From the IMG/VR virus record IMGVR_UViG_3300042516_001936, positions 1 to 26,034 of that record: 26,034 bases of DNA, one strand, 5' to 3'. Every line of letters begins with the position of its first letter. The stretch's first letter is position 1. Made by a program: the position numbers and the translations under genes. Origin of the DNA: a virus. Lineage: Duplodnaviria > Caudoviricetes. The notes under the pieces are model-generated. The model was given only the letters and a program-made list of their open reading frames with translations, ran no database searches and had not been told where the DNA came from. Of this stretch, positions 8,892 through 25,703 are shown piece after piece.

Positions 8892-9952
8892 TATTTTTCT
8901 ACTAAGAATGTTAAATCTCTATCTGAGAAGTATTCTATTACACCATCTCTATCTATCTTTACTTCAATATAATATTCTCTATTAGTTTCCCAGTTTTGTA
9001 AATTTAACTTAAAAAAGTTACCATTAGAATCACAACTAACTTTTGAATAATCACCAAATGGTACAATTATATCATCAGTAACAATATCTCTAATTTGGTA
9101 ATATGTTGTTGATGGTAAATATTTTAAATCATTATATGTGTAATAATCAGTATAAGTTCTTAATGGATATTTTTCTCTACCGAACACTCTAATTTCAGGT
9201 TTACTATCTTGTTTATATCTACTTTTTAATCGTTTAAATGTCACATGAATATCATCAGATGTAAGTTCGGTAAGTGAACCAGTTGTAAAACTAGAATCAT
9301 CCCAACCAATTCTTATTTTTGGTTGATATATTGTATTTGTTTCTTTTGAGAAGAATTTTAATTGACCGTAATCATTTTGGTCATTTTCAAACTCAGAATC
9401 GTATTTAATAATAAATCCATTATTTGGAAGTGAACCACTTAACCATAATTGAATTGTATTTTTTACATCAATTGATAAATCAGCTGTTTGGTATTCAAAT
9501 GATTGGGTGGATTGAGAACTTGTATACCAAGTACCCCCTCTACCATTGTAAGAACCAGTAGAATCCAATGAAAGGGATTCTGCTAATAACCAATTGGTGT
9601 TAGTTGATTTATGATTCCACGTTATACCATCTCCTGAAATTTCATCAAATCGTGTACCTATACCCATTTCCCAAGATTGAGAAACTGGATGGAGATATAT
9701 TGTATATGATAAAGGAATTTCAGATGCCTCTGCCTCATGTAAAATGAGTTCGGCTGAACTCATAGTTATTTGTCCGTTTACTATTGATGATGAAAGTGAA
9801 TTCAAATTAAATTGAATAAAAGAACGAGCAACATCTTTAAGATTTCCATAATAAGTTTTAGAAACTTCTAATATTTCATCTAATCCAGTATTCTGAGTTG
9901 GTTGTTGTAAATATATTGATGCATCTTTTGATGCCGTTAAAAAATGATACAT
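8891..9952 (-). CDS. Putative baseplate-associated structural protein (DNRLRE-like beta-sandwich)
   Basis: 353 aa. Pattern KDASIY...RSFIQFNL...SAELILH...W...NNGFIIK...FFSKE...PKI resembles DNRLRE domains; TAATG-coupled to the gp6-like gene. Confidence 0.6.
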   Translation of the reverse strand: MYHFLTASKDASIYLQQPTQNTGLDEILEVSKTYYGNLKDVARSFIQFNLNSLSSSIVNGQITMSSAELILHEAEASEIPLSYTIYLHPVSQSWEMGIGTRFDEISGDGITWNHKSTNTNWLLAESLSLDSTGSYNGRGGTWYTSSQSTQSFEYQTADLSIDVKNTIQLWLSGSLPNNGFIIKYDSEFENDQNDYGQLKFFSKETNTIYQPKIRIGWDDSSFTTGSLTELTSDDIHVTFKRLKSRYKQDSKPEIRVFGREKYPLRTYTDYYTYNDLKYLPSTTYYQIRDIVTDDIIVPFGDYSKVSCDSNGNFFKLNLQNWETNREYYIEVKIDRDGVIEYFSDRDLTFLVEK

Positions 9953-11967
9953 TAAATAGCCCTCCCCTTAATATCTTTATTTGGAAACTTAACTTCAAAT
10001 ACTGATGGATCTAATGATGGATATACCATTTTACCCTTTGTTGCTGCTCGAATGTTATATGAATTTTTAGAGTAACTACCTAAACATTTATTTACGATTT
10101 CACATTTTGGAACGGACTGAACTCCCTCTACTCCTGCAATTAATAATTCAACTTCAGAAATATTAATTGGCATATTAAATGTCCAATTGTCTATATTAAA
10201 GTATTGTTGGAGTTCGGTAATACAACGAGTTAAAACTTCTCTTTTGTTATAACCACCATAAACTCTAATTTCAAAATCAACACCAATATTAATCACAAAC
10301 CCATCCAATAAATTTACACCATCGGTTAATAATCTATATTCATTCATGTATGTTTTAAGATTTTCTTTAACCGCTCTATTAAGAGGTGATAAATTTTTGT
10401 TTAAGTTATATCCTAACACATATAAATTAATTGCGAATGGATTATTTTTTTCTTGTATATTATTTTTCTTACCAATTAAAAATCTTTGAACTTCTTCTTT
10501 GATTTGGTCTTCAGTTAATTCTCTATTTTTTAAATCGGTAATTAAACCAGTAAATTCACTCAACACATCAGGATTCGCTAGAATAGAAGATGGTGAATTA
10601 TTATCCAACTCGCCATCAGGTGCACAATATGCTTTTGCAATTCCACCATATTTTGCTGGTAATGATAATGCTCTTACTTGATAATCTTTACGAGTTACTG
10701 CTCTATTTTGAGCACCAAAATTTGCAAGTGAATTTTCTCTAATTTCTTCAATAGTTTCTGCACCTCTACCTCCGGTTGCAGGAATTTCATTATCTACTGC
10801 AACTGATGCTTTCATTGAATTATATAATCGTAATTCATCAGGTGTAAAAGTTGTTGTATCATCATCAAATTCAATCCTATCAATTTTTGTCAAATCTCCT
10901 TTGGGTACATTTGAACTAATACCACCACCAATTAAATATGAAACGGCAAGTGTTGTATTAGAAGGTGATTGACCGTATGTGTTAGTTTTTAAGAAATTTG
11001 CTGGGTCAAATGATGAACCTAATTTACTAATTGATGAATTTAATCCTAATCCCACATTTTTAAAATTTGGTATTAGTGTTTCATCACTCGTACTCATACC
11101 CCCACCAAATACAAGTGTAGTTGTATTATTTTCGTTTATTTGTTTTACAAATCTACGAGAAGTTTTGATTAATTTTAATACATTTGGAACCGAATCTTTG
11201 AATTGAACTAAATCTTTATCGGTTTGTTCGGAGTTTGGATAATCTATATAAACCATCTCTTGTGCAAGATATGGAACCTCATACCATTTATTTCCATTTG
11301 AATCACGAACATCGTAAATATCAATAACATTTGTATCTGCTATTTCTATTTTAGAAAATTGTTGAGCAGAACCAAAACTTATACTTTGAGATTTTAAAGT
11401 TGCTGAAATCGCATTAACATATTTTTTAATCAAATATAAATTAGGTTCTCCTGATAAAGAATCAGTTCTATACACACTTATTTCTCTTTCATCTTCAACA
11501 CTAAAATCTAACATTTCAGTTGTTCTAAATATAATAGAACTTGGACCGGATACCAACATACCTTCTTTAATTCTTAAAAAATAAGTTTCATCAGGTTTAA
11601 TATCACTTCCAGTTCGTGTTGCCGGTACTAATTGGTATACCGATAATTTTGTAATTGCAGGAGATGTTACTTTGGGTTTATATCCTAAATAATTTGCAAG
11701 AGCTATAACATTATTTTTATCCTCCGCATATAACATCATTGATTCTTTTAATGAATCATCAACATAATAAGAAAGAACATCACCTATATACGATGCCATT
11801 TCAATGAATAACATACCAGGTGATGCCTCATTGAAATCGGAATAAGTTTTTGGGAAATATGTTTTTGCGTATTCAATTAGATTACGTCTAAATGATGCAA
11901 AATCTTTATTAAGATATTTTATATCTCTACCCTGATTACTTCTTCTTGTTGTACTATTTAGTGCCAT
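9952..11967 (-). CDS. Baseplate wedge subunit (T4 gp6 / P2 gpJ-like)
   Basis: 671 aa. YLNKDFASFR...DFNEASPGMLFIEMASYIGDVLSYY at the N-terminus and ATGGRGAETIEEIR...QNRAVTRKDY are typical baseplate J/gp6 motifs; follows the gp25-like gene. Confidence 0.9.
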   Translation of the reverse strand: MALNSTTRRSNQGRDIKYLNKDFASFRRNLIEYAKTYFPKTYSDFNEASPGMLFIEMASYIGDVLSYYVDDSLKESMMLYAEDKNNVIALANYLGYKPKVTSPAITKLSVYQLVPATRTGSDIKPDETYFLRIKEGMLVSGPSSIIFRTTEMLDFSVEDEREISVYRTDSLSGEPNLYLIKKYVNAISATLKSQSISFGSAQQFSKIEIADTNVIDIYDVRDSNGNKWYEVPYLAQEMVYIDYPNSEQTDKDLVQFKDSVPNVLKLIKTSRRFVKQINENNTTTLVFGGGMSTSDETLIPNFKNVGLGLNSSISKLGSSFDPANFLKTNTYGQSPSNTTLAVSYLIGGGISSNVPKGDLTKIDRIEFDDDTTTFTPDELRLYNSMKASVAVDNEIPATGGRGAETIEEIRENSLANFGAQNRAVTRKDYQVRALSLPAKYGGIAKAYCAPDGELDNNSPSSILANPDVLSEFTGLITDLKNRELTEDQIKEEVQRFLIGKKNNIQEKNNPFAINLYVLGYNLNKNLSPLNRAVKENLKTYMNEYRLLTDGVNLLDGFVINIGVDFEIRVYGGYNKREVLTRCITELQQYFNIDNWTFNMPINISEVELLIAGVEGVQSVPKCEIVNKCLGSYSKNSYNIRAATKGKMVYPSLDPSVFEVKFPNKDIKGRAI

Positions 11968-11971
11968 TTAA

Positions 11972-12403
11972 TTAACCTCGTATCGTAAATGTTATTTCTT
12001 CTGTATTTATTTGATTACCAACTGTAAATTGAATATTCATATTTGCTATATTTCTATCTTTCATCTCATCTGTCATTTCGATATCGATTTGTTTGATAGT
12101 AATATAAGGCAACCAATAATTTACATTAGTTGTTATTGTCTCTTCTAATCTAGTTTCAAAATCATCTGTCATTTGTTCAAAAAGTAAAGATTGTAATCCA
12201 GTACCAAAGTTGGGTTGCATAACTCGTTCACCTTTTTTGGTAAGTAAAAGATTTTTTAAATTAGCTTTTGCTTGTTCAAAGACAGAAAATGCTTGATTAA
12301 AATATCCAGTATTACCTCGTTGGACAGGTAGAGTGATACCGTAAGCAAAATCATTAAATGCTTCAGTATCTTTTACAATCTTTTTATTTAAAACATATGC
12401 CAT
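11972..12403 (-). CDS. gp25: Baseplate wedge / sheath-initiator protein (T4 gp25 / GPW family)
   Basis: 143 aa with NLKNLLLTKKGERVMQPNFGTGLQSLLFE, the GPW_gp25 signature. Confidence 0.93.
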   Translation of the reverse strand: MAYVLNKKIVKDTEAFNDFAYGITLPVQRGNTGYFNQAFSVFEQAKANLKNLLLTKKGERVMQPNFGTGLQSLLFEQMTDDFETRLEETITTNVNYWLPYITIKQIDIEMTDEMKDRNIANMNIQFTVGNQINTEEITFTIRG

Positions 12404-12405
12404 TA

Positions 12406-13041
12406 TTACTTATTGAACCTCTTAACTAATTGAGAGTAATCTCGGTTTAATGCTTTATCTAATGCTTCGTTTCCAGTTTTAACACCTAAACCACCTCGTT
12501 GAGCACCTCCTCCGAAATCACCATAACCCATCTTCTCTGCCATTTGATTTCTCATAGCACCCAAGCCTACTTGTGCAGTTACTGGATTATTAAATGTAAA
12601 TGTTTCATCAATATCAGGTTCTGCATCCATATACGAAGGAACATAAGATGCTGCTTCTTGAATCGGTTGTTGGTATGTATCTAAAATTGAAGTACCACCA
12701 CCAAGACCACTTCTTTGAGCAGAACTAAATGGTTGTGTTTGATTTAGTATTTCATTCAATACTGGATTTTTTGTAAACTCTTTTGTTGGTTTATTTTGTG
12801 TTTGTTGTCTTTCTTTTTGTAAGACAGATTCTGCAAGAGCAAAAGGATCTAATTCTTTTATTTTAGTTGTAGTTTGAATCGGAGTTTTACTTTTTGTTTC
12901 TTTTAAAAGTTTTACCATTTTGGCATTAACTTCTTCTTCCAAAATTTTTGGAAAAATTTTAGTTAGAAAATGTTCTTGTTTTTTAGCAACTTCCGCTTCT
13001 ACAATTATTTGAATTAACTTTGCTAATTTTTTACTATCCAT
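12406..13041 (-). CDS. Hypothetical phage protein
   Basis: 211 aa, preceded by the promoter-like 10-mer, ends 2 nt before the gp25-like start; no recognised motif. Confidence 0.75.
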   Translation of the reverse strand: MDSKKLAKLIQIIVEAEVAKKQEHFLTKIFPKILEEEVNAKMVKLLKETKSKTPIQTTTKIKELDPFALAESVLQKERQQTQNKPTKEFTKNPVLNEILNQTQPFSSAQRSGLGGGTSILDTYQQPIQEAASYVPSYMDAEPDIDETFTFNNPVTAQVGLGAMRNQMAEKMGYGDFGGGAQRGGLGVKTGNEALDKALNRDYSQLVKRFNK

Positions 13042-13062
13042 TTTTATTCGGTTTTATTCTTT

Positions 13063-13072
13063 ATATAAATAT
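13063..13072 (-). promoter_or_regulatory. Putative phage late promoter ATATTTATAT
   Basis: Same 10-mer, 21 nt before the ATG at 13041. Confidence 0.75.
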
Positions 13073-13095
13073 ACCTTTTATGGATTTTGTATTCT

Positions 13096-13126
13096 AAATA
13101 AAAAAAGGGAGTTTTCACTCCCTTTT
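13096..13126 (-). terminator. Intrinsic terminator after the TBDR-lipoprotein operon
   Basis: Minus strand AAAAGGGAGT-GAAA-ACTCCCTTTT followed by TTTATTT; perfect stem, GNRA loop, 3 nt after the lipoprotein stop. Confidence 0.88.
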
Positions 13127-13129
13127 AAT

Positions 13130-14326
13130 TTAATTACCTTTAGATGGGAATCTAGTCCATCCATTAACCCATACAGGCTTATCTAATTCAGGTATTACTA
13201 CATCTATCTCCTTATTACTCTTTGAAAGTGCTAAAGTTTTAAGTTGGTCATTTGTTAAAATTGTGGTTGCTCTACTGATAAAGTTTAGGGTAGGGTTAAA
13301 TGTTCCTACTGAATTGTTTTCAAATACCGAAACTCCATCTTTTACGAATTGTGCAGTTTCATTACTTTCTAAACTCAATCCACCTTTCATCCATCCCCAA
13401 ATTACACTATTCTTCATTGTGAATTGGGTTGCTCTTCTAAATCTTAAACCTAAATTATGGTTTGCCAGTGCAGTTGATACATTAGGTCCAACCAATACCA
13501 TATTCAATAATTTAGGATGTGTTACTGGTTGTGCAGATGAACCAGTTCCATCATTATCACATTCCACACCATTTCCGGCATCACCACTATCTACGAATTG
13601 AGGGTCTCTCTTTGCTACACCATTTGTGATAGTTCCAGTATATCCAAAATCAAAATCAAAGTCATCATCTGCGGTTGCGAATGCATATAAGTTTTTAGGT
13701 GATACCGTTCCGCCAAAGAATTCGAATGCATCATCGTTAGCATAGATAGTTTGAACATTCTCAATGATTGTTCCACTACCTACACCACCCAAAGTTAATG
13801 CGTTGATTTCAGAGTTTGGCATTGCAGCAATTCCAGCGTATTCAATCCTTACATATTTTAGAACACCACTATTATCGAAATCGTTGGTTCCACCGAATGC
13901 TCTACCAATACCACCTTCGATAGTTGGTTCGGATGTTCTATTGGTTTTTGCTCTACCCAATATCACAATACCACCCCAATCACCAGGAGTTCTTTCACCT
14001 ACTGCTTTACCAGATGTAAACACAATTGGTTTTGCTGCAGTTCCTTCTGCTATAATTTGTGCACCTCTTTCAATACATAATGCACCCTTCTCACTTATAT
14101 CGGAAATGATGGTTGTTCCAGGTTGAATGATAAGTTTAGCACCATCGGTTACATAAACATATCCTTTCAATGTCCAAACTTTATCTGATGTAAGGGTTGT
14201 GGTTGTGTTGATGTTACCAGTTAAGGTTGTTGATAAGGGAGTGTTAATAGGAGCATCATCTCCACCTAATTCTTTTTGGCAGCTGAATAATCCCACGATT
14301 GCGAATAATACTAATAGTTTTCTCAT
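13130..14326 (-). CDS. Outer-membrane lipoprotein, probable beta-helix fold, partner of the TonB-dependent receptor
   Basis: 398 aa. Lipoprotein signal MRKLLVLFAIVGLFS/C16; acidic motifs GDWGGIVILG, DNSGVLKYVRIEYAG, DDAFEFFGG, DDDFDFDFGY; ATGA overlap with the receptor stop. Confidence 0.85.
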   Translation of the reverse strand: MRKLLVLFAIVGLFSCQKELGGDDAPINTPLSTTLTGNINTTTTLTSDKVWTLKGYVYVTDGAKLIIQPGTTIISDISEKGALCIERGAQIIAEGTAAKPIVFTSGKAVGERTPGDWGGIVILGRAKTNRTSEPTIEGGIGRAFGGTNDFDNSGVLKYVRIEYAGIAAMPNSEINALTLGGVGSGTIIENVQTIYANDDAFEFFGGTVSPKNLYAFATADDDFDFDFGYTGTITNGVAKRDPQFVDSGDAGNGVECDNDGTGSSAQPVTHPKLLNMVLVGPNVSTALANHNLGLRFRRATQFTMKNSVIWGWMKGGLSLESNETAQFVKDGVSVFENNSVGTFNPTLNFISRATTILTNDQLKTLALSKSNKEIDVVIPELDKPVWVNGWTRFPSKGN

Positions 14327-16800
14327 AATGTTAAATTTAGTGTTAGTGAAATTGTTTGTTCGTTGTTTGTTTTGATTAAATTTCTGTTTTGTACTTTTTG
14401 ATAATAGATTGATGATTGGCCAAATACATCACCTATTGCCAATTTGATTTCTCCATTTTTGAGTTTATGTAAAAAGGTTATATCCAATACATCTCTACTA
14501 TTCTCAAAAATGTCTGGATAACCTTGAAATCCTACTGCTGATATTCTATCTCCTACTCTGTTATGTGTTATATTGAGTGTGTTTTTATTTTTATGTATAT
14601 TCACACCACCATTTACCACATAGTTTGACTGTCCTTGTAATTGTCTTTTAGTTCCACCAACTTCCACCTCCGAGTTCATTAGTGAAGTATTTGTATACAC
14701 ATCCAACCATTCGGTGACCTTTTTACGAAACTCCAATTCAACTCCATAAAGAAGTGCATCATCAGGATTTGTATAAGTTAATAACAAATTGGATGGAACC
14801 GAACCATCTGCTACTATTTGTTCTATCGGTCTAATGAATTGTTTACCGAATACGGATACTGAAATGTTCTCTCCCATAGTTGGATACAATTCCCACTTCA
14901 TATCTATATTGTATATGTCCGTTTTTTCTAACTTTGAATTACCCAATATTTGTGCGTTTCTCACAAAATCATAATAAGCAAAATTAGCTACTTCTCTAAA
15001 CTCTGGTCTTGCCAATGTTTTACTTACTGAAAATCTATACTTTGTTTTATCCAAATTATATGAAAGGTTTAGTGATGGTAGAACATCCAAATATTCTCTA
15101 TTCACATTTACCTTTCCACCACTAAAATCTGCAGTAGATACATCGAATAGGTTATACTCACCTCTTACTCCTGTATTTAGTTTCCACTTACCCCATTCGT
15201 TTTCATACATTGAGTAAAGAGAACCTAAATCAAAATCGGCAGTATATCTATCGGTATTGTTTGTTATCTCATCCATCAAATCTGCTGCAGTATATCTAAA
15301 AACTCTTGCATTAAATCCTCTAATCTTTTTTAGATATCCACCACCAACTTTTATCTTACCCAACTCTTTGTTGATATTACCATTGAAACTATTCTCATCC
15401 ATAATCGACCAGAAACGATAGGTATCTCTCCATGCAGTAGCGTATGGTTCGTTCACACCTAACGATTTTGTGATTGGATTTACTCTGTAATCAGGTTGTT
15501 CTCTGAATATGAAATTGTATCCTAAATTGAAATCCCAAGTCCTAATCTTTCCATCAAATTGAGAATTAATTACAACATTGTTTATATGATTGGATGAATT
15601 GGTTAATACATCTTGTAGGTTATCATAATTTTCACCACTACGGGTTAGATAGGTATCATCTTCCTGATAATTTACTAATGTTTTCCAACTATATCGGTTC
15701 TCACCCAAATAAGTTAAGTTTAATAAACCATTTGTAGAAAATCTTTTTGTGTATAGGATATCCTTGTAATCGTATGCTAATTCAGTTGATGATTGGTAAT
15801 CTTTTCTTTGGATATCATTTAGTATGAATGAGTTTCGGATTGTTGAACTGAATAGGGAATTGAACTTACCTTTTGTGTATCCAAATGATAGTCCACCATT
15901 TAGATTTGGAATTGATTGGAAATTCGTTTCACTTGGATTGCCGATTTGTTTTGTAAATAATCTCTTATCACCATTACCACTAATTCTATATTTGTAGGTA
16001 GAAGGGAATGTGGAAGGGAAATCGGTAGTTTGAACTAACTTAAAATCTCTAAAAGTTGAAACCGAACCCCAGCCACTTCCCAATGATATATTAAAAAAAT
16101 TATCAGATACTTCCTTTGTTGTAATTTGCACCAAACCACCACTCCAATCGCCAGGTTGATTTGCTGATGCTGATTTAGAAACTATAATGTTATCAATTAA
16201 TGCGGTTGGGATTATATCAAATGAAAATGCTCTCCTATCAGGTTCGGTTGATGGTAATGGGGTTTTGTTTAAGATAGCAGAGTTGTAACGGTCTGCCAAC
16301 CCTCTTACCAACACAAACTTATCATTTTGGATTGTTACACCACTTACTCTTTTAAGTGCATCACCCACATTTCTATCAGGTGTTTTCTTAATGAAATCTA
16401 TTGATACACCATCCGATACTACTGATGAATTACGAATTGATTTTACAACTGAAACCTCACTTACTTTCTGTCCAATTGCTTGTATTGTAACTTCTGTTAA
16501 TTCAGTAGTTTCTTCTTCTAATAGGATATCTAATTGGATATTATCTTTTACATCTATTTGTTTTACAAAAGTTTTATATCCTAAAAATGATGCTCTTAAT
16601 TCGTAAACGCCAGTTGGAATAGTTATTTCATAATTTGAATCTATATCAGATGCAACTCCTGATATTTTACCATCCGAATTTGTTAAAAGTATGTTTACAA
16701 ATGGAAGTGGTTCTTTAATAGATTTTGTAGAACCTTTGATTGTTACTTGCGAAAATAACAAGTTTGGTAAAAGTAATAATAGTAAAAATAAGCGTTTCAT
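14323..16800 (-). CDS. TonB-dependent outer-membrane receptor
   Basis: Start placed at ATG 16800 (signal peptide MKRLFLLLLLLPNLLFSQ) rather than TTG 16809. Carboxypeptidase-regulatory-like N-domain (GVYELRASFLGYK), plug motifs (VRGLADRYN, DIIPTALIDNIIVSKS, SGGLVQITTK), barrel motifs (LPSLNLSY, SKTLARPEFRE, YGVELEFRK) and an amphipathic last strand ISLTLNLTL. Confidence 0.93.
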   Translation of the reverse strand: MKRLFLLLLLLPNLLFSQVTIKGSTKSIKEPLPFVNILLTNSDGKISGVASDIDSNYEITIPTGVYELRASFLGYKTFVKQIDVKDNIQLDILLEEETTELTEVTIQAIGQKVSEVSVVKSIRNSSVVSDGVSIDFIKKTPDRNVGDALKRVSGVTIQNDKFVLVRGLADRYNSAILNKTPLPSTEPDRRAFSFDIIPTALIDNIIVSKSASANQPGDWSGGLVQITTKEVSDNFFNISLGSGWGSVSTFRDFKLVQTTDFPSTFPSTYKYRISGNGDKRLFTKQIGNPSETNFQSIPNLNGGLSFGYTKGKFNSLFSSTIRNSFILNDIQRKDYQSSTELAYDYKDILYTKRFSTNGLLNLTYLGENRYSWKTLVNYQEDDTYLTRSGENYDNLQDVLTNSSNHINNVVINSQFDGKIRTWDFNLGYNFIFREQPDYRVNPITKSLGVNEPYATAWRDTYRFWSIMDENSFNGNINKELGKIKVGGGYLKKIRGFNARVFRYTAADLMDEITNNTDRYTADFDLGSLYSMYENEWGKWKLNTGVRGEYNLFDVSTADFSGGKVNVNREYLDVLPSLNLSYNLDKTKYRFSVSKTLARPEFREVANFAYYDFVRNAQILGNSKLEKTDIYNIDMKWELYPTMGENISVSVFGKQFIRPIEQIVADGSVPSNLLLTYTNPDDALLYGVELEFRKKVTEWLDVYTNTSLMNSEVEVGGTKRQLQGQSNYVVNGGVNIHKNKNTLNITHNRVGDRISAVGFQGYPDIFENSRDVLDITFLHKLKNGEIKLAIGDVFGQSSIYYQKVQNRNLIKTNNEQTISLTLNLTL

Positions 16801-16819
16801 AGTTATCAAGTTAGTTCCC

Positions 16820-16888
16820 CAATAACTATATTTCGAAATATTTAAAATTTTAACTTTTAGATTATCAAATTATTAATAAATTGTTTAT
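16820..16888 (-). promoter_or_regulatory. Putative regulatory region of the TBDR operon (variant late promoter, palindrome, 11-bp periodic repeats)
   Basis: ATAGTTATTG (16829-16820, 7/10 match to the 10-mer) 19 nt before the ATG; perfect 14-bp palindrome ATATTTCGAAATAT (16828-16841); 11-bp-spaced units at 16888-16845. Confidence 0.4.
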
Positions 16889-17869
16889 TTAAGTGTAAAG
16901 ATTTGGATTTTCTTTTAATTTACTCCAATATGCACAAAATTTTTGTTTTCTATCTTCCCATCCATTAGGAAGTCCATTTTTATTTTTACCATTAATTCGT
17001 ATTGAAACTGCTAATACTGATGCTTCAGTATCATCTTTTGCCAATGTGTTTATATCATTTTTCTTCCAAAACCATCCGGCAGTTTCAGTATAATAATCAG
17101 TTGCAACAACAGTTGGATTAGTAACAACGCCTGGTCTTACTTTATCGTATTGGGTATAGTTATACCTACCAGTAACTTGTATATATCCCCGACCTTTAAA
17201 TCTACGTCCATCTCCTTTTTGAGTATTTCCCAAATTCTTTCTACCTTCATATGCTTCACCACTTGCAATTTCTTCTTTATAATAAAAATTTGCAGTTTCA
17301 TGTGCAACTTGTGCAAGAAAATGTGCCCTTTGTAACGGAGTTTTAATTCCATATAGTTTCATAGTTTCAATCAATAACGGCTCAGGGTCTTTAATAGTTA
17401 CTTTGCCACACGCAGTTATTACTTGAGTTGGGTTTACATTTGTAGGTGTACTTGTATTCGATGATTCTCGTTTTCTTTTTGCCTCGGGTAAATCTCTGTT
17501 TACATCTTCTATTTTTAAATTACCTTTAATAACTTCACCACCGAGTTGACCACCTATCGCAGTAGAATCTGAAATTGCATATCCCTTATTACTTGCAATA
17601 TTTGATACTGCTAATTCTTCCGGCTTAAAAACTACAAGTTCATCAAAATTTTGTAGTACTTCTTCACTCAATGTTAAATCGGGTGGTGGACCACCTTGAC
17701 CACTTGGAATAGTATACCCTGTCCAAGTTTTAAATCCTGGTAATGGTAGAGGTGAAGGCAATATAGTACCAATGGTGATATAAATACCACCCACCGTTTG
17801 TAAATGTAATTGCATTTGTGTGATTAATTGATTTAAAAACACTTCACTATCGTTAGTTGGTCTTGCCAT
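16889..17869 (-). CDS. Protein with C-terminal GH19 (chitinase/lysozyme-like) peptidoglycan hydrolase domain
   Basis: 326 aa. RAHFLAQVAHET, YEGRKNLGNTQKGDGRRFKGRGYIQVTGRYNY, AGWFW and RING are phage GH19 lysin motifs; N-terminal 55 aa are non-catalytic. Confidence 0.92.
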   Translation of the reverse strand: MARPTNDSEVFLNQLITQMQLHLQTVGGIYITIGTILPSPLPLPGFKTWTGYTIPSGQGGPPPDLTLSEEVLQNFDELVVFKPEELAVSNIASNKGYAISDSTAIGGQLGGEVIKGNLKIEDVNRDLPEAKRKRESSNTSTPTNVNPTQVITACGKVTIKDPEPLLIETMKLYGIKTPLQRAHFLAQVAHETANFYYKEEIASGEAYEGRKNLGNTQKGDGRRFKGRGYIQVTGRYNYTQYDKVRPGVVTNPTVVATDYYTETAGWFWKKNDINTLAKDDTEASVLAVSIRINGKNKNGLPNGWEDRKQKFCAYWSKLKENPNLYT

Positions 17870-17875
17870 ATCTTA

Positions 17876-18811
17876 TTATCCTATTTTTTGTGATTCTACT
17901 GCAGCTATACCATTTTCGTTTAATCGCCAAAGGGCAACTGTATTAAAATCTACACCACTTGTTTGAACCTTACCTTGAGTGAAATCACTAACCCAAGCAA
18001 ATCCGGTCCAAACTTGTATGTGACCGTATGCACGAGATTTGTAACCTTGGGCTATCACATCTCCAACTTGCCATTTTGTTGCGTCTTTAATCCATTCCTC
18101 ACTTACCTTGACTTTATTATGATAATACTTTGTACCGTTAACATCAATAGCAAATGAAGATGCACCGGTTGTTGGAGTATCTGTGCCAGGACTTTTAAAT
18201 GAAAACCAATCTGCGTGACCGTATATTTTACCAAGTTCATTTATACCAGTCAATGCAGCAACTACTGCTTGAGTACCTTGTGGACATAATCCATGAATAT
18301 CTTTAATATAACCACGTCTTAAATTTTCATATTTTACTCTTTTATTTTTACCAAGTTTTGGTGCAAGATCTCCTGCAATTTTTAATAATTTATCTAATGT
18401 TCGATACCCACTTTTTACCTCCTTACCTTCTGGTTCCTCATTCAATCCTTGGTTTTTAACCTCATCATCAATTATTTGTGTTTTAACATTATTCAATTGA
18501 GTTGCAGCTGATTTTTCTAAATCAGTAACAGCTTTGGCATCTACAATTTTTTGATTTATTTTATTAATATCAGGATTTATAATTTCCTGAACCTCTGGAT
18601 CATTTTTATCTAATGGAACTCTACTCCAATCTAATTTTTGATAAACATCGTAATTAATTGCATCGGGGGCAAGCGGGGTTTCTAAAGTCACATCCGATGG
18701 TGTCCATATACCAGAATTTGTTGTAAAATTTGTTATTTGTGAAATATGTACGAATACCCCAATAGGTGTTATTGATGGTATTGGTGGTGGAAATAAACGC
18801 ATTGTTGCCAT
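17876..18811 (-). CDS. Protein with C-terminal CHAP/NlpC-P60-like (Tae-type) cysteine amidase domain
   Basis: 311 aa. Cys in HGLCPQGT, then GDVI and YGHIQVWTGFAWVSDFTQ, matching the Cys-His papain-like peptidoglycan amidase pattern. Confidence 0.72.
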   Translation of the reverse strand: MATMRLFPPPIPSITPIGVFVHISQITNFTTNSGIWTPSDVTLETPLAPDAINYDVYQKLDWSRVPLDKNDPEVQEIINPDINKINQKIVDAKAVTDLEKSAATQLNNVKTQIIDDEVKNQGLNEEPEGKEVKSGYRTLDKLLKIAGDLAPKLGKNKRVKYENLRRGYIKDIHGLCPQGTQAVVAALTGINELGKIYGHADWFSFKSPGTDTPTTGASSFAIDVNGTKYYHNKVKVSEEWIKDATKWQVGDVIAQGYKSRAYGHIQVWTGFAWVSDFTQGKVQTSGVDFNTVALWRLNENGIAAVESQKIG

Positions 18812-18823
18812 AGTTCTATATGT

Positions 18824-19942
18824 TTATTCGTATATTGAAACGTGCATAGGGTCATTACTACTTAACCAAGTCATTCCTACACTCTGAAATACTTTTGCTA
18901 CTTGTAAAAAACCTTTATCAAAATCATTTAAATCTCGTATCTTAATCTTACCTACATAGATTCCATCTGACTTAAATGAGGTTCCAAATGGATACCTTCC
19001 TGCATTCATATCAAATGCAGTTCCCCAACTATGATTTGAAAGTCGAGTTCCTCCAGTAACATTTCTTACTGCAAGTCCTCCCGCAGTGTTTGCTATAAAT
19101 TTTTCTAATTTTTTTTCTCGAATTATTTTAAATGCAGGTTCAGCTACAGCAGCCAAATCTTTATGAATCGTAAGTTTCGCATCACCACTTGCAGTTGGTA
19201 ATAATACCTGTGTACAATTTGCTTTTATAAAATCAGGATTTTGTTTATACCATATTCGTACACCATCTTTAGTAACTTGTCTACTACTTTCTTCAAATGA
19301 ACCTGGTCCTGGTCCTTTTGCTGGCCAATATCCATTACCACATTTTTCTAATAATTTGAAATCAGTTCCAGTTCCTTTTGTAGTAATTGGGCCAGTTTGG
19401 GTTGGGGTTACATCATCTGTACCTGAAGATGGTTGTTCTGAATTTGATTCTTTTATTTCTCGTTGATTCGAAAAAACTTGTTCTCTATCTACATTTTTAT
19501 TATGTGCAAATGCTGCAGCAGAAGTACTAAAAAAACTTTCGTATATTCTTTGTGTTTTTGGATACTCAATTACTATGTCTCTACGAATTGCCTCAGCTTC
19601 TTCTTTCTCTTCTTCAGTAAAGAATTCTATAATTTGTTGAAGAAGTGAACCTCCTCCTGAAATTGGAGTCCAGTACGCCTGAAATGCCTTCCCCATATTT
19701 GTTATAATAGCATGTTCACCTGATGATTGTTGGAACGCAGTATTTAGTACCCCACCCAATACTTGTTCCATCGCTGCAGTATTTCCTTCTTGAAGAGTTA
19801 TACCATTTACTGTATCAAACCCTCTCTTAATTAGAGCATCATATTCTTGAACCAATTTTTTAGCAAATTGTTCTTTAAATGCTATATTTGGTTGGTTTCG
19901 CATAAAAACCAACATATTTTGTTTAAAGATATCGTATGACAT
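18824..19942 (-). CDS. Protein with C-terminal peptidase M15 (VanY-like) Zn domain
   Basis: 372 aa. R...LSNHSWGTAFDMN and DPMH match the M15 SxHxxGxAxD...(D/E)xxH signature; N-terminal ~93 aa helical and non-catalytic. Confidence 0.88.
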   Translation of the reverse strand: MSYDIFKQNMLVFMRNQPNIAFKEQFAKKLVQEYDALIKRGFDTVNGITLQEGNTAAMEQVLGGVLNTAFQQSSGEHAIITNMGKAFQAYWTPISGGGSLLQQIIEFFTEEEKEEAEAIRRDIVIEYPKTQRIYESFFSTSAAAFAHNKNVDREQVFSNQREIKESNSEQPSSGTDDVTPTQTGPITTKGTGTDFKLLEKCGNGYWPAKGPGPGSFEESSRQVTKDGVRIWYKQNPDFIKANCTQVLLPTASGDAKLTIHKDLAAVAEPAFKIIREKKLEKFIANTAGGLAVRNVTGGTRLSNHSWGTAFDMNAGRYPFGTSFKSDGIYVGKIKIRDLNDFDKGFLQVAKVFQSVGMTWLSSNDPMHVSIYE

Positions 19943-19943
19943 T

Positions 19944-21179
19944 TTATTCAGTATAATTTAAAGTAGATAACATTTCTGACAATCTTCCTTTTAAAGAATT
20001 GAATTGAGCCCTATTTTCAGGACCTGTTGCAGTTGGACCAGATGGAGTTCGATATACTTGTGAGTTAATCAAATCAATCATGGTAGATAAAATTTCTTTT
20101 AGAGTATTACCCCTAACTAATGGTTGGGATGAATTATTAGTGTTTAAGAATATTTTACCACTGCCAGTATTTAGTGTAATATTAGAACTACTTCGTGATG
20201 TAGTTATATTTACATTACCACCAAAATCTAAATCTGCACCAAGACCATTATCAATTGAAAATTTACCATCAGATATAAATCCATAATCTCCTTTTGAATG
20301 AAACACCATTTGTCCTGTCTTTGCAGAAATTATAATTTTACCACTATTGATTAGTAAATGGTCATCACCCTTGAGTGGATTTGGGTATGAGGAAAATTTA
20401 CTTGGAGTGATAGAAGTTGTTGCAGTAAATGGTATTTGGTAATCCCCACTTGACAAAACAATAACACTACCATCACTATTTACATTTTCTTCAGTTATGT
20501 CACCTTCTTTTAATGATGATAGAGTTTGTGAATCTTGTCTATTACGAATTATTATAGTTGGTGAGTATACATTATTTGCATTATTATATGCACTAAATCG
20601 GATTGATTGACCGAATCTAGTTTGTATTAATTTATCACCTTCATATAATTTTAATTTATTTACTGAATTAGCTCTGAAATACTTACCAAACTCACTTGTT
20701 TCAGAAGTTTCATTTGTAGTATTTCCAAGAGGAGTTCCAGTTTGAGCAGATTCTTTTATAGATGCATCCACTGCAATCTTTTCTTTCTTGTTATAGATTA
20801 CATCGGCTCTTTTTTTAATAGCATTACCAGTATTTAATGAAAATCCTGGTATTCTTCTATAATATTCAACCGAACCGACCATTATCAATTCAACTGATTC
20901 ACCAATTAATGGTAATTCGGTATCAGATGGGTTTAAACATGGATAAGTGTTTAATTGTTCGTTTGGGTTTGTACCATCTGAATATTTTCGTATAACAACA
21001 TTACCTACTATACTTGTATCTTTTTCGGTAAACGCAGTTTGGAAATTTTTTTTATTTTTTATTCTAGGATGTGTTTCATCTAAAATAACATCAACAACAA
21101 CTCCAGTACTTGTTGATGTAACTAACGGTTGTTTATTAGTACCACTTGATATATTTGATTGTTGTATTCTAGTACTCAT
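19944..21179 (-). CDS. Baseplate hub / central spike protein (gp5/gpV-like) without a lysozyme domain
   Basis: 411 aa. OB-fold-like N-part (GVVVDV...PLIGESV), EGDKLIQTRFGQSIRF, a stretch of short beta repeats, then QPLVRGNTLKEIL...TPSGPT; position upstream of gp25/gp6. Confidence 0.72.
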   Translation of the reverse strand: MSTRIQQSNISSGTNKQPLVTSTSTGVVVDVILDETHPRIKNKKNFQTAFTEKDTSIVGNVVIRKYSDGTNPNEQLNTYPCLNPSDTELPLIGESVELIMVGSVEYYRRIPGFSLNTGNAIKKRADVIYNKKEKIAVDASIKESAQTGTPLGNTTNETSETSEFGKYFRANSVNKLKLYEGDKLIQTRFGQSIRFSAYNNANNVYSPTIIIRNRQDSQTLSSLKEGDITEENVNSDGSVIVLSSGDYQIPFTATTSITPSKFSSYPNPLKGDDHLLINSGKIIISAKTGQMVFHSKGDYGFISDGKFSIDNGLGADLDFGGNVNITTSRSSSNITLNTGSGKIFLNTNNSSQPLVRGNTLKEILSTMIDLINSQVYRTPSGPTATGPENRAQFNSLKGRLSEMLSTLNYTE

Positions 21180-21592: not shown

Positions 21593-21613
21593 GATTTTAC
21601 CATATTATGTTGT

Positions 21614-21623
21614 ATATAAATAT
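21614..21623 (-). promoter_or_regulatory. Putative phage late promoter ATATTTATAT
   Basis: Same 10-mer, 21 nt before the ATG at 21592. Confidence 0.75.
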
Positions 21624-21663: not shown

Positions 21664-22470
21664 TTATTGATAAAAAAATCTTATAAATGCAAATCGTTTA
21701 AAATTATCATCTAACACCGAATTAACACTATGATATACATTATTTTTAGTAAAATCTAAAATTACAATATTTCCAAATTCGGGTTTTACAATATTAGATT
21801 TATTAATAACTAACTCACCTCCATATCCTTCTTTATAATCATCATTTAAATAAATTAGTATAACACACAATCTTCCTGCATCAAATCCATCTTGATGATT
21901 TTCTATAAAGTTATTTTTTAAGTATAATGTTAAATCAACACTATGTTGTGGTTGATATGAAACATTATATAAATCTTTTAATAAAAATTCAAAAATTTTA
22001 TTTGATACATCAAGAGAATTATTACATAATAAATCTTGCTGTGGATATGATGTATTGTTTTTTTTAATAGTATGGTAATACCATACTTGAGAATAATTTT
22101 CTATATAATTTGCTAATTCATTATTTAAATCTTCAATATTTAATTTATTTTTAGCGAATGAATTAAATATATGTAATTGATGTATTGTATCTATTTTATC
22201 TTGAGTGGAATTTCGCTCAGTTCGAATCATAAATAAGTTAGATACATCTACATATTTTAGATGATTATTACAAATATTTATAATTTTTTCTATCTCATCG
22301 TTTGTTAAATTTTTTCTCAATGTTGAATCTATTCTAACATTTTCTATTAGTTTTTCATACTCACTTTTATCAACTATTGATAATAATTCATTGTATAGTG
22401 ATTCATTGACATCTTTTAAATTAAAAGATAAAAACCCATTTTCTAATAACTTTGATTTGTTTAACACCAT
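21664..22470 (-). CDS. 2-oxoglutarate/Fe(II)-dependent oxygenase (prolyl-hydroxylase-like)
   Basis: 268 aa. HQD...RLCVILIYLNDDYKEGYGGEL...YHSVNSV...KRFA gives the HxD...H...R ligand set. Confidence 0.88.
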   Translation of the reverse strand: MVLNKSKLLENGFLSFNLKDVNESLYNELLSIVDKSEYEKLIENVRIDSTLRKNLTNDEIEKIINICNNHLKYVDVSNLFMIRTERNSTQDKIDTIHQLHIFNSFAKNKLNIEDLNNELANYIENYSQVWYYHTIKKNNTSYPQQDLLCNNSLDVSNKIFEFLLKDLYNVSYQPQHSVDLTLYLKNNFIENHQDGFDAGRLCVILIYLNDDYKEGYGGELVINKSNIVKPEFGNIVILDFTKNNVYHSVNSVLDDNFKRFAFIRFFYQ

Positions 22471-22473
22471 AAA

Positions 22474-22572
22474 TTAGTTTACTTTTTTGTACTGTCCCTT
22501 TTTTTGTTGGGATTTAATTGTTTCTTTTGCCATTCTTTTTCTATTTTTTGTGGCAATCTCTCGTTTAGTCAT
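22474..22572 (-). CDS. Small basic protein (32 aa), not in the ORF track
   Basis: MTKREIATKNRKRMAKETIKSQQKKGQYKKVN; ATG overlaps the end of the upstream gene by 8 nt, TAA ends 3 nt before the next ATG, exactly filling the gap. Confidence 0.6.
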   Translation of the reverse strand: MTKREIATKNRKRMAKETIKSQQKKGQYKKVN

Positions 22573-23137
22573 TATCAGCCTCCTTTAACTTTCCACACTT
22601 CAAACATTCCAACTCACCATCGTTATCAGAATCACCCCAAACGTGTTCACATTGTCTGTGTGCGAAGTAGACATCGATTTTACCATCACCATCGAAATCA
22701 ATACCATCCATTATACCATCGCCATCTTCATCCACTTCGATACCAATTCTTGGTTCTTGTTTTACAACTACTTGTTCTTCGATTTCAACTTCTTTTACGA
22801 TTGGTTTTATTGGGGTTGGGGGTTCCGGCGAATCTCCACCTAATGTATTGGATAATGAAACACCGTCTTCTTCATCCATCTTTTGTACTAACATCTTATC
22901 CTTATCGGTATCACTAAACCAGTAATCGATAATCTTACCATAAGAACCAATGAAGGCACCTAACATTAGAAGTAATAATTCTTTCCATTCTTGACCAACT
23001 ACGGTTTCGGTATGGATAGAAACAACAATACCTATTGTTAATAATAAAAATGTAAATAATACGATGGCTGTGATTAACCATCTTCGTTTCATCATTGAAT
23101 TTAATAAATCCTTAAATCCAGAACTTTGATTTTCCAT
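22565..23137 (-). CDS. Two-TM membrane protein (holin-like N-terminus) with DxDxDG repeats and a Zn-ribbon-like C-terminus
   Basis: 190 aa. Hydrophobic segments WLITAIVLFTFLLLTIGIVVSI and LLLLMLGAFIGSYGKIIDYWF; DEDGDG, DFDGDG, DSDNDG; CEH...CLKC. Confidence 0.7.
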   Translation of the reverse strand: MENQSSGFKDLLNSMMKRRWLITAIVLFTFLLLTIGIVVSIHTETVVGQEWKELLLLMLGAFIGSYGKIIDYWFSDTDKDKMLVQKMDEEDGVSLSNTLGGDSPEPPTPIKPIVKEVEIEEQVVVKQEPRIGIEVDEDGDGIMDGIDFDGDGKIDVYFAHRQCEHVWGDSDNDGELECLKCGKLKEADND

Positions 23138-23161
23138 TTATGTAATCTCCTATTTTTTTAC

Positions 23162-23171
23162 ATATAAATAT
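23162..23171 (-). promoter_or_regulatory. Putative phage late promoter ATATTTATAT
   Basis: Same 10-mer, 24 nt before the ATG at 23137, with AGGAG between them. Confidence 0.75.
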
Positions 23172-23203
23172 AAAACAAAAAACCCAAGTATTAACTTGGG
23201 TTT
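23172..23203 (-). terminator. Intrinsic terminator after the carbamoyltransferase
   Basis: Minus strand AAACCCAAGT-TAAT-ACTTGGGTTT then TTTGTTTT. Confidence 0.82.
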
Positions 23204-23236
23204 AATTTTTTGTTTGTTTTTATACTGTGAGTATAA

Positions 23237-24952
23237 TTATAGTATCTTTTTTCGAACTATATAATTGTGTAATACCAATGTATCCATTTCACAATCCAAA
23301 AATGTTTTTATTGCAGTTTCGGGGTCTAACACCATTGTTTGGTCTTTTAGATTAAATGAAGTATTTAGAACAATTGGATACCCATTATCTATTTCTAACT
23401 GATTAAGTAATTTGTACATACGAGTATGTTGACGATTATTCAAAGTTTGTATCCTTGCAGAACCATCTATGTGTGTAATAGCAGGTAAATTTTTACGATG
23501 TTCTTCGTTTACTTTTACCACTTGATTCATGTAAGGAACGAGATGTTTATAATCAAAATACTTTAATCTTTCTTCTTCCTTTACTATTGGTGCAAAAGGT
23601 CTAAACCCTTCTCGTTTCTTAATAACACGATTGACTCGTGCTTTCATTTGAGGGTCTCGGGGGTTAGCAAGTATAGAACGATTACCGAGGGCTCGAGAAC
23701 CGAATTCCATTCTACCTTCGAACCAACCAATAACATTTCCATCAGTAATTTCTCTACTGATGACTGGAATAATCTCAGAGTGATTTTTATATTCATACCA
23801 AACATCATTTTCGTGTTTATCTAATATTTCTTTTATTTGTTCGTTTGTATAAGATGGACCTAAATAAGGATTTGTATTTACTACTCTATTTTTGTTATTT
23901 AATTCATTATACCAATAATAAAGAGCAGAACCAATAGCAGAACCAGCATCGGATGGTGCAGGTGGAATCCACAATCCTTTGAATGGTGTCATATCGGTAA
24001 TTTTACCATTTGCAGTTCCATTGTATGCACAACCACCACTCAAACAAACATTATTTGCCGGTCTTAATGCAATTGCACGATTTAATAATCTAAAAAAATA
24101 ATGTTCGTATTCGTGTTGCAATGTTGCAGCTAAATCTTTATGGTCTTGTGTAATTTCCTCATCGGGTAATCTATTAGGGAATTCAAACAACTCTCCCAAT
24201 TTCTCGTTAAACATAGATTTATCATCCCAATCATAGGTAAAATAATTCATATTGATTTTATATCCACCATCATCGGTAGGTGAAATCAAATGAGAAAATT
24301 TAGATAAATATTTTTTGTAATCACCATAAGGTGCAAGACCCATTACTTTATATTCACCTTCATTTGGTTTGAATCCAAGGAATGCGGTAAATACTGAATA
24401 TAGCATTCCTAACGAATGTGGAAACTCTACACTTTGAAGTTTAATTATTCTATTCTCGTCACCATAAGCAATTACGGTGGTTTCCCATTCACCAACACCA
24501 TCTACCGAGACAATCATTGCTCTCTCGTAGGGTGATGTATAGAATGAATATGCTAAATGTGAGAGGTGATGTTCGGTATGAAACAATTCTGAATTAGGAA
24601 ATAATCTCTTAATCTTTTTTTCTACCTTCTTGTATTCTTGTTTATTATTGTAGATAATTTTTTGTCTATTAATTTCATTAACGAACCCACCTCGTTTTGT
24701 AGATTTTTCAATTCTATCAATTTTCAATTCGGGTAGTTCATAAAAAGTAACTACATTAATATCGTTAGGAGTAATTCCTTCATTTTCTAATAACCAATTT
24801 ATGGTATTAATTGGAAACGAAGAATCATGTTTTATACCAGTAAATCGTTCCTCTTCAACTGCACCTACAACCTCACCATTTTTAATGAGAGCAGCAGCAG
24901 AATCATGATAACCAGAACTTATTCCTAAAATATAAAAATTATTCACTTTCAT
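23237..24952 (-). CDS. O-carbamoyltransferase, NodU/CmcH/TobZ family
   Basis: ILGIS..YHDSAAAL, EEERF, HHLSH, DGVGE, EYKVMGLAPYG, SGGCAYN, GRMEFGSRALGNRSILA, KREGFRPFAP, HIDGSARIQT, LNTSFN. Start placed at the second ATG (24952) to minimise overlap; 24970 is the alternative. Confidence 0.95.
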   Translation of the reverse strand: MKVNNFYILGISSGYHDSAAALIKNGEVVGAVEEERFTGIKHDSSFPINTINWLLENEGITPNDINVVTFYELPELKIDRIEKSTKRGGFVNEINRQKIIYNNKQEYKKVEKKIKRLFPNSELFHTEHHLSHLAYSFYTSPYERAMIVSVDGVGEWETTVIAYGDENRIIKLQSVEFPHSLGMLYSVFTAFLGFKPNEGEYKVMGLAPYGDYKKYLSKFSHLISPTDDGGYKINMNYFTYDWDDKSMFNEKLGELFEFPNRLPDEEITQDHKDLAATLQHEYEHYFFRLLNRAIALRPANNVCLSGGCAYNGTANGKITDMTPFKGLWIPPAPSDAGSAIGSALYYWYNELNNKNRVVNTNPYLGPSYTNEQIKEILDKHENDVWYEYKNHSEIIPVISREITDGNVIGWFEGRMEFGSRALGNRSILANPRDPQMKARVNRVIKKREGFRPFAPIVKEEERLKYFDYKHLVPYMNQVVKVNEEHRKNLPAITHIDGSARIQTLNNRQHTRMYKLLNQLEIDNGYPIVLNTSFNLKDQTMVLDPETAIKTFLDCEMDTLVLHNYIVRKKIL

Positions 24953-25703
24953 CAAATATATCGTCTTCAAATTCTATGCTAGATGTATCAATCCAAAATG
25001 GTTTTTCTTTTACTGAAAATTCTCCATTTTCTAAATACTCATTTAACATTTTTTTCTGATGTTGTTTCATTACATTTACTACCTTGGTAATATAATGAGT
25101 CTTACAATCAGTCATTTCTCTAATAAGTAGATAAAGATGTTTTTTATTAAAATTTTCTATATATTGACTTCTACGAAATAATTCCAATACTGCATCTGCT
25201 ATTTGAATATCTCTTTTCTTATTAAAGACAGTAGCAAGATGCTTATCCCAATACTCCAACATTATATCATTGAACTCTCTAAACTCACTTGCCTCTTCAG
25301 TTTCATAAAAATCATTTTCGGGATTCCAACTCTCAGGCATTTCTGATACAAGAGCGTTTTGTTTCCATCTTTTGAAATTACCATTGTTTTTTAAGATAAG
25401 ATGATTTTTAGCAATGATACTAAAATAAGAAAATGCCCTACCTTTGTTTTCTTTATACATATGTATTTTTTCAATCATAGTAGATACAACCTCGGCCTGA
25501 ATATCTTTTTTAGGTGCATCAAAATATGAAAATTTAAATGTATTAAGAACATTTTCTGCTAATTTTTCAAACGGATATTTAATTCTTTCTTGATAGATTC
25601 TTGACCGTTTGATTGGGTCTTTTGTTTTATTGTATTCTATTATTGCATCTTGTGCAGGAGTACCAAAATAAATTTTATCTTTTGGTTTTCTTTGTTTCAT
25701 CAT
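24939..25703 (-). CDS. Putative phage RNA polymerase sigma factor (gp55-like, late transcription)
   Basis: 254 aa. FEKLAEN...DIQAEVV...KIHMYKENKGRAFSYFSIIAKN follows the sigma region-2 pattern (compare F-x-YF of gp55-like proteins); a C-terminal helix-turn-helix-like segment (LIREMTDCKTHYITKVVNVMK) and an acidic tail. Confidence 0.62.
   Translation of the reverse strand: MMKQRKPKDKIYFGTPAQDAIIEYNKTKDPIKRSRIYQERIKYPFEKLAENVLNTFKFSYFDAPKKDIQAEVVSTMIEKIHMYKENKGRAFSYFSIIAKNHLILKNNGNFKRWKQNALVSEMPESWNPENDFYETEEASEFREFNDIMLEYWDKHLATVFNKKRDIQIADAVLELFRRSQYIENFNKKHLYLLIREMTDCKTHYITKVVNVMKQHQKKMLNEYLENGEFSVKEKPFWIDTSSIEFEDDIFDESE

Follow-up and report, generated by a model that had tools for sequence, protein, structure and literature searches.

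Across the 26,034 nucleotides (nt) of the linear Caudoviricetes record IMGVR_UViG_3300042516_001936 (hereafter the window; CheckV completeness about 13%), all real genes lie on the minus strand, as do the window features whose coordinates are given below. Among them is a two-gene cassette encoding a TonB-dependent receptor (14323..16800) and a surface-type lipoprotein (13130..14326). The cassette is movable among large freshwater phages, and on balance we think it probable that, during infection, it brings phosphorus-containing molecules into a Bacteroidota host short of phosphate. The receptor, 825 amino acids (aa) from its ATG and 828 aa from an upstream TTG at 16809, consists of an N-terminal CarboxypepD_reg-like domain, a plug, and a barrel, matched above the respective Pfam cutoffs by PF13715, PF07715 (36.8 bits; cutoff, 23.9), and PF14905 (91.5 bits; cutoff, 27); a plug followed by a barrel marks it as a TonB-dependent transporter. 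Its domains indicate that it is not a SusC: the pair has no TIGR04056 match at an E value of 0.01 and no SusD Pfam match. Against TIGR01782 the receptor scores 162 bits, below the cutoff of 310, and PDB sequence searches returned matches for its N-domain and plug only. The 398-aa lipoprotein matches PF28492 (Beta_helix_4), has an isoelectric point of 4.92 in its mature form, and carries a Cys16 that is invariant across 30/30 aligned homologs. The two genes overlap at 14323..14326, where the receptor TGA and the lipoprotein ATG form an ATGA kept at 68/69 distinct phage junctions, an arrangement that suggests translational coupling. A terminator-like hairpin with a 10-bp stem and a T-run follows at 13103..13126, and a hairpin with a T-run lies 3′ of the lipoprotein gene at 38 of 78 distinct phage lipoprotein ends. 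An earlier reading made from the letters of the window (the sequence-only reading) had described an intact receptor with signal peptide, N-domain, plug, and barrel, coupled through ATGA to an acidic lipoprotein and furnished with its own terminator, and had remarked that the receptor ends in TGA and the other genes that it checked in TAA; all of this holds, the signal peptides of both proteins being judged by eye. The TGA stop, which the receptor alone uses among 21 window genes checked, was considered and rejected as a mark of foreign origin because the ATGA overlap with the lipoprotein start requires it.

The lipoprotein is modeled as a parallel β-helix (predicted local distance difference test score, pLDDT, 88). 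Its fold matches are weak and point to pectate lyases and tailspikes (E values of 0.005 or worse; template modeling scores of 0.2-0.35); Foldseek returned no match at an E value of 0.001, and a PDB profile search found no solved relative. When receptor residues 226-825 were modeled with lipoprotein residues 20-398, the complex scored 0.81 versus 0.00 for the best of three controls, on a scale whose mark is reached by 116/157 solved and 2/215 mismatched pairs, counts that hold roughly here because our own alignments were used. The runs agree in at least 85% of contacts, the partners have pLDDT values of at least 90, and the lipoprotein is predicted to cap the receptor barrel. Among phages, the predicted interface is more conserved than the remainder of the proteins (0.93 versus 0.80 and 0.92 versus 0.86) and carries or adjoins the invariant residues R130, E173, D198, D226, D246, D249, D259, H290, R297, and R298. 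Together with the many conserved receptor arginines (19/37 are at least 90% conserved, versus 7/45 lysines and 12/48 aspartates), these residues would fit an anionic, perhaps metal-bridged cargo.

The cassette is real and not a chimera. Contigs from runs X1 and X2 cover 11902-13166, and the stretch from 16687 on, without a single differing letter, contigs from run X11 span both junctions with 23 and 38 differences, run X5 bridges the downstream junction only, and the listed pieces of X4 bridge neither; one of the runs may itself be the source of the window. The same gene order recurs on 11 separate IMG/VR contigs, so that an assembly artifact, the possibility against which the sequence-only reading had asked for read support, finds no footing. 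Summed contig depth over the cassette is ~5 to 40 times that of the flanks in five DNA runs, which means that many similar cassettes share these lakes and is not a copy number. RNA runs X19 and X20 (shares 0.06 and 0.05) yielded a few short contigs, over the cassette and the flanks alike. One contig of run X5 has a long loose end at position 16901, perhaps from a co-occurring strain in which other DNA follows the GH19 gene.

Upstream of the cassette lies a GH19 endolysin-like gene (16889..17869; PF00182, phrog_181), and downstream lie a 211-aa gene (12406-13041), gp25, and gp6-type baseplate wedge genes (together 9952..13041; PF04965, phrog_219/261); the gp6-type protein shares 38-42% identity with its counterparts in three phages, namely Flavobacterium phage immuto (38%), a Microcystis-filed phage, and one uncultured megaphage. 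The sequence-only reading placed the cassette between a lysin trio and a gp25/gp6 block. That position is right, but the 211-aa gene intervenes between the lipoprotein and gp25, and the trio is less secure: its GH19 and M15 members exceed Pfam cutoffs, and the middle gene has a weak PHROG endolysin match. In 16889-21179, a 411-aa gene without a family match precedes the GH19, middle, and M15 genes, and relatives carry one to three of the latter. By analogy to T4 gp5, these genes may represent hydrolase modules of the baseplate hub and not a lysis cassette.

Relatives were sought in IMG/VR by pattern matching; 107 of 110 matched stretches encode a receptor relative and 135 of 200 a lipoprotein relative, and 80 relatives of each, on contigs of up to 326 kb, were kept. 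The 405 overlapping viral loci hold 90 distinct full lipoproteins and 78 receptors, and the pair occurs in more than 100 freshwater viral contig stretches, so the earlier remark that it is unusual in phage genomes does not extend to this phage group, where it is not rare. The same reading had called for a presence/absence survey at the locus in related phages: among 79 loci fetched by the gp6-type protein, the pair is present at the site in 11, absent in 53, and 15 are too short to tell. In the 53 loci without the pair, the 211-aa gene directly follows the lysin-type genes. The cassette inserts at many sites, of which the baseplate region is one, and it is not a baseplate part, because 60 distinct cassettes show 48 different neighbor pairs. 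Alleles also move independently of their flanks: in L001 the receptor is 96% and gp25 62% identical, and in L015 the values are 78% and 100%. The phage pair is shorter than its cellular counterparts (825 + 398 aa versus 920-940 + 440-590 aa in most cells), and 29 of 68 distinct full phage receptors lack the N-terminal domain. Both genes are under purifying selection, with median ratios of nonsynonymous to synonymous substitution rates (dN/dS) against the window of 0.14 (receptor; 65 pairs) and 0.13 (lipoprotein; 96 pairs) and a maximum of 0.26, for pairs with dS below 1.5 that include repeats of one contig. Being intact, selectively maintained, patchy among relatives, and set among phage genes, the pair behaves as an auxiliary gene set. 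An apparent loss of the lipoprotein in G002 and G005 was rejected; these contigs end inside the receptor gene. A second phage clade (L413, L523, L516, L524-L526; lipoprotein 54-59% and receptor 45-49% identical) has no N-domain and keeps the ATGA overlap, with phage genes at three of the six loci inspected.

The cellular relatives connect the pair to phosphate. Among the best 80 cellular lipoprotein loci, nearly all labeled Bacteroidota, neighbors include PitA (29 loci), DUF47 (23), PhoR-like (21) and PhoB-like (13) proteins, OprP (8), a phosphodiesterase (8), and ppk (6); PitA, DUF47, OprP, phosphodiesterase, ppk, ppx, DUF5690, or HpnW is found at 41/80 loci, rising to 51/80 once PhoR/PhoB-like genes are counted. 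Downstream of the pair, Aquirufa carries genes for phosphonate degradation and alkaline phosphatase. In Flavobacterium johnsoniae, the receptor Fjoh_0545, which has the same three Pfam domains, and the lipoprotein Fjoh_0546 lie in a phoBR cluster, and phosphate depletion strongly induces both, according to the available part of PMC8115612. The view of a host-derived uptake pair linked to phosphate starvation, which the sequence-only reading had associated with Flavobacterium-like bacteria and proposed to check in cellular neighborhoods, is thus supported by gene context, by that report, and by an upstream repeat.

As many as six 11-bp repeats with the core TAA(C/T)A lie upstream of cellular receptor genes. 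A matrix trained on 65 cellular upstreams, and seeded with a core already seen in the cellular and phage sets, scores at least 6 bits in 31 of 58 distinct phage receptor upstreams versus 5 of 562 other phage upstreams (related sequences). In 44 cellular upstreams selected for a dimer plus TAnnTTTG, which we take to be the Bacteroidota -7 element, half sites lie 14, 25, 36, 47, and 58 nt before that element. In the 51/63 phage upstreams that have a different core, TAnTTAT(A/T), the half sites keep two of these registers, 36 nt (52%) and 47 nt (42%) before that core. In the window, two half sites with an 11-bp period, recognized by matrix score and by their register in relatives and degenerate here, form a putative PhoB box (16856..16877), and the best site lies 77 nt before the start, a position shared by most relatives. 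The putative promoter core (16816..16828) contains the TAnTTAT(A/T) element, present in 50/63 phage receptor upstreams versus 122/439 other phage upstreams, and resembles the phage's own upstream motif, TATATTTAT, which precedes four other window genes (at about 13058-13070, 21600-21615, 23150-23165, and 1095-1110) and is likely a phage late-promoter core; we infer that the element acts as a promoter core. The exact triple repeat has 7 sites over three whole bacterial genomes (2 matches for the reversed control): before two training receptors, pitA, a metallophosphoesterase-glycosyltransferase pair, and a phoB-like gene, and at two unrelated sites. Because it precedes pitA, the phoB-like gene, and the metallophosphoesterase pair, we infer that the 11-bp repeat is a PhoB site; a Bacteroidota PhoB consensus was not found in the literature searched. 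Within single carrier genomes, the receptor site ranks first of 48 upstreams in G006 and has no proper score in G007, where the reading frame is broken or miscalled. A sigma-70 scan was uninformative (22 sites versus 21.7 by chance), and a search for PhoX in five bacterial genomes as a test of the repeat returned 0/5 and was unusable.

We propose the following cycle. When phosphate is short, host PhoB would bind the two 11-bp repeats and raise transcription from a hybrid promoter in which PhoB sites are set on a phage-like core. Both proteins would reach the cell surface through host Sec, the β-barrel assembly machinery, and lipoprotein export, with TonB-ExbBD of the host as the energy source, a supposition made because TonB was not found in five long carrier genomes. 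The lipoprotein is predicted to sit on the outer loops of the receptor, with its invariant Asp/Arg/His face toward the pore. A plausible cargo would be a negatively charged organophosphate, for example fragments of nucleic acids or phospholipids, and the imported phosphorus would feed phage DNA synthesis. The trees discussed below suggest that the pair came from a Chitinophagaceae-like donor and was shortened in phages, and that a single phage allele subsequently took the place of the native genes in some Aquirufa. Several points weigh against a phosphate-responsive importer. The cassette stands alone, with no PitA, OprP, ppk, or phoBR homolog in 156 phage loci; pstS is absent from 5/5 long carrier genomes, and phoH is present in 3/5. 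The 51/80 rate of phosphate-linked cellular loci has no random-gene control and comes from loci related to one another, and PhoB/PhoR are the best models for the regulator neighbors but score below their cutoffs. At -1.9 bits, the window repeat belongs to the five or six lowest-scoring of the 58, and in G001, a 326-kb carrier, the receptor site ranks only 8th of 109 upstreams; Pho boxes predicted in phage genomes are considered unreliable without binding tests, which they often fail (PMC10976474, in the part available). Among cellular relatives, BT4055/BT4056 mutants have no clear phenotype (bioRxiv 10.1101/2023.03.17.533168), ElpS itself is not a phosphatase and cc0171 is constitutive (PMC2996285), and the function of Pus3/Pus4 is called hard to predict (PusCD preprint), each as given in the accessible portion of the source; no substrate is known for the receptor-lid family.

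The weak window repeat, together with the 27/58 phage sites below 6 bits, is what one would expect if the pair were a working importer expressed independently of phosphate, at least in this phage, from the phage-type core, with the repeats a decaying relic and any anionic nutrient, for example nucleotides as building blocks, as cargo. The match of the core to the motif before four other window genes and the presence of the host TAnnTTTG element in only 6/63 phage upstreams would suit this account, which we nonetheless regard as unlikely: the repeats are fixed at 36 and 47 nt across receptors that differ by up to 40% and across 33 upstream contexts. TonB-dependent receptors are common phage receptors, and the pair could instead mask, displace, or outcompete the host receptor of rival phages, the surface-remodeling alternative. 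Three divergent Aquirufa alleles replace one another at a single site, a pattern typical of receptor loci under predation, phages trade cassette alleles (L001, L015), and receptor-level roles for phage outer-membrane proteins have been raised (bioRxiv 10.64898/2026.10.24.761521, in the part available); yet the predicted outer interface is more conserved, not less, the plug is 89% conserved, and both partners are always kept together with the phosphate-type repeat, an association that a decoy would not need, so we find superinfection exclusion improbable. Baseplate-gene neighbors and tailspikes among the weak best fold matches might suggest a tailspike-like baseplate appendage, a very remote prospect given an invariant lipidation cysteine and signal peptide, orthologs in 147/151 genomes of one bacterial family, absence from the site in 53/64 informative baseplate loci, and no PHROG match. 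Neutral cargo or an assembly chimera with host DNA, to which the GC content at third codon positions might point (0.22-0.23 in the cassette versus 0.13-0.16 in ten flanking genes; 0.21 in a carbamoyltransferase gene), is effectively refuted by the bridging contigs, the 11 contigs with the same order, phage-only clades, and dN/dS near 0.14.

We return to the importer and its history. The closest cellular lipoprotein relatives are in Aquirufa (69-73% identical), and the homologs listed for 150 other genomes drawn from its family are 37-50% identical. Across 64 genomes of the genus, a 71-75% form occurs in 12, each time as the sole copy, and a 44-51% form in 41; of the remainder, one has a faint match and 10 have none. 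The three Aquirufa alleles share one site in 9/10 phage-type and 10/10 native loci examined, and a phage-type locus (L159) and a native locus (L592) agree at 96-97% identity over the upstream genes, at 94% downstream, and at 92% across the promoter region. The phage-type allele thus appears to have replaced native genes at the native site in some Aquirufa. Loci L588-L597 show that the genus keeps two divergent native alleles at that site (930 + 443 aa and 940 + 590 aa), inside a phosphonate and phosphatase island. All trees were quick LG+G4 reconstructions with Shimodaira-Hasegawa-like approximate likelihood ratio tests (SH-aLRT). The lipoprotein tree (108 rows, 37 of them chosen from the main phage clade) places the second phage clade outside a group of the Aquirufa phage type and the main phage clade (SH-aLRT 99 and 100), and this assemblage nests inside Chitinophagaceae; the receptor tree, with 88 rows, sets the Aquirufa form inside the main clade, as the sister group of six phage rows. 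Phage-only clades, for which the sequence-only reading had proposed to look, are present in both trees. A first lipoprotein tree, built on the 80 best viral matches, made Aquirufa a mere sister of the phages and was overturned by adding the second phage clade. With the sets reduced to 58 and 60 rows, approximately unbiased (AU) tests reject a single clade of all phages that excludes Aquirufa (p 3e-7 and 0.023), and likewise a grouping of Aquirufa with its own family (p 4e-5 and 0.0099); the main phage clade alone without Aquirufa is not rejected (p 0.18), so that deep nesting of Aquirufa in the receptor tree is not forced. The shortest history is a transfer from phage to Aquirufa, a direction that we consider likely. 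Two captures from an unsampled cellular lineage are a less likely alternative, and the C-terminal residue is Phe in the Aquirufa receptors but Leu in all 37 phage rows. Taking these patterns together, we tentatively suggest, at somewhat less than even confidence, that freshwater jumbo phages have long kept a compact importer lineage with a hybrid promoter, shuffled it among sites and groups, and returned it across orders into about a fifth of Aquirufa species, in place of the native pair and under the native promoter. If this were so, abundant lake bacteria would be gaining new nutrient transporters from an active phage reservoir, and the cargo of the family would be what phage DNA synthesis most lacks.

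Other genes recur around the cassette. In L002, L005, L007-L009, L042, and L056, a block of exported phage proteins (cohesin-like, DUF3244-like, DUF2589, and small membrane proteins) lies upstream of the receptor, and such a block recurs beside the cassette in many relatives. The window holds only its 190-aa member, a membrane protein (22565-23137) that has DxDxDG repeats near the C terminus, no Pfam match, and homologs in 46/157 clustered loci. Region 21664-24970 encodes a carbamoyltransferase (PF02543/PF16861), conserved at the site in relatives, and a 2OG-Fe(II) oxygenase, variable and in a 22% GC stretch. A second TonB-dependent receptor of 1091-1095 aa (PF25183 + PF13620) is present in five phage contigs (L027:6452-9733, L034:4766-8047, L106:4339-7626, L025:5009-8290, and L146:3379-6654); it is divergent from the cassette in L027 and L034 and directly upstream in L106, and a 31% homolog adjoins the native pair in Aquirufa L594. 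An orphan low-phosphate TonB-dependent transporter of F. johnsoniae, Fjoh_3841, is described in the accessible part of PMC8115612 as having PF13620 only.

If true, the Aquirufa swap would clearly exemplify the return of an auxiliary gene from phage to a host of another order. The known phage phosphorus genes, such as pstS, phoA, and phoH, belong mostly to cyanophages, and their products handle inorganic phosphate within the cell envelope. With a complete outer-membrane importer and its lid, the control that viruses exert over phosphorus in lakes would reach organic sources and heterotrophic Bacteroidota as well. The short phage version also offers a handy construct for finding the cargo of receptor-lid systems, a family among the most strongly induced in starved Flavobacterium.

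The mainly open literature searched already contains phage outer-membrane barrels beside phosphate genes and a PhoB-controlled cyanophage pstS; the cassette, the repeat, and the Aquirufa swap were not found there, and Supplementary Table 7 of bioRxiv 10.64898/2026.10.24.761521 may list such barrels. That preprint describes phage-encoded 22-stranded barrels in huge phages, some beside phosphate-acquisition genes in aquatic phages; in its main text, "lipoprotein" has 0 occurrences and neither a Pho box nor a return to the host is mentioned. Megaphage LR745206.1 (635 kb; L237, 77475-81048) carries both genes in the same order (27.5% and 39% identical) on a branch that is long and stands apart, and it probably captured them independently; a Mar_Mega_1/LR745206 receptor, possibly the same gene, has been called a SusC for carbohydrate uptake (PMC9723777), in a main text that mentions no lipoprotein partner, Pho box, or transfer back to a host, and the available part of PMC13573597 has zero occurrences of TonB. 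With a receptor of PF13715, PF07715, and PF14905 followed by a β-helix lipoprotein, the phage pair has the makeup of PUSIV, BT4055/BT4056, and cc0171/ElpS. As far as the available parts of the sources go, BT4055/BT4056 of Bacteroides thetaiotaomicron and cc0171/ElpS likewise join a non-SusC receptor to a lipoprotein proposed as a lid (bioRxiv 10.1101/2023.03.17.533168; PMC2996285), BT4056 has been linked to Fjoh_0546 (40%) and ElpS (bioRxiv 10.1101/2023.03.17.533168), and ElpS of Caulobacter is made under phosphate starvation (PMC2996285). These pairs are cellular, the phage pair is assigned to them by domains and context and not by alignment, and few confident contacts are predicted for BT4055/BT4056, in contrast to many in the phage pair. 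PUSIV (Fjoh_0545/Fjoh_0546) of F. johnsoniae, induced by phosphate depletion only, shares PF07715, PF13715, and PF14905 with the phage receptor, has a pectate-lyase-like lipoprotein (Fjoh_0546, FII) to set beside the phage β-helix, and has the glycosyltransferase, OprP, and phoBR-like neighbors common to cellular homologs of the phage pair (PMC8115612, in the part available). The phage pair differs in being phage-borne and shorter and in lacking phoBR, OprP, and phosphatases, and here too the likeness is one of domains and context, not alignment. Cyanophage pstS under host PhoBR is, in the accessible part of PMC10976474, likewise a host-derived phosphorus gene, patchy among relatives and with a host-type Pho box; PstS, however, is a periplasmic binder of inorganic phosphate, whereas the phage pair would be an energized outer-membrane pore with a surface lid and, likely, an organic cargo.

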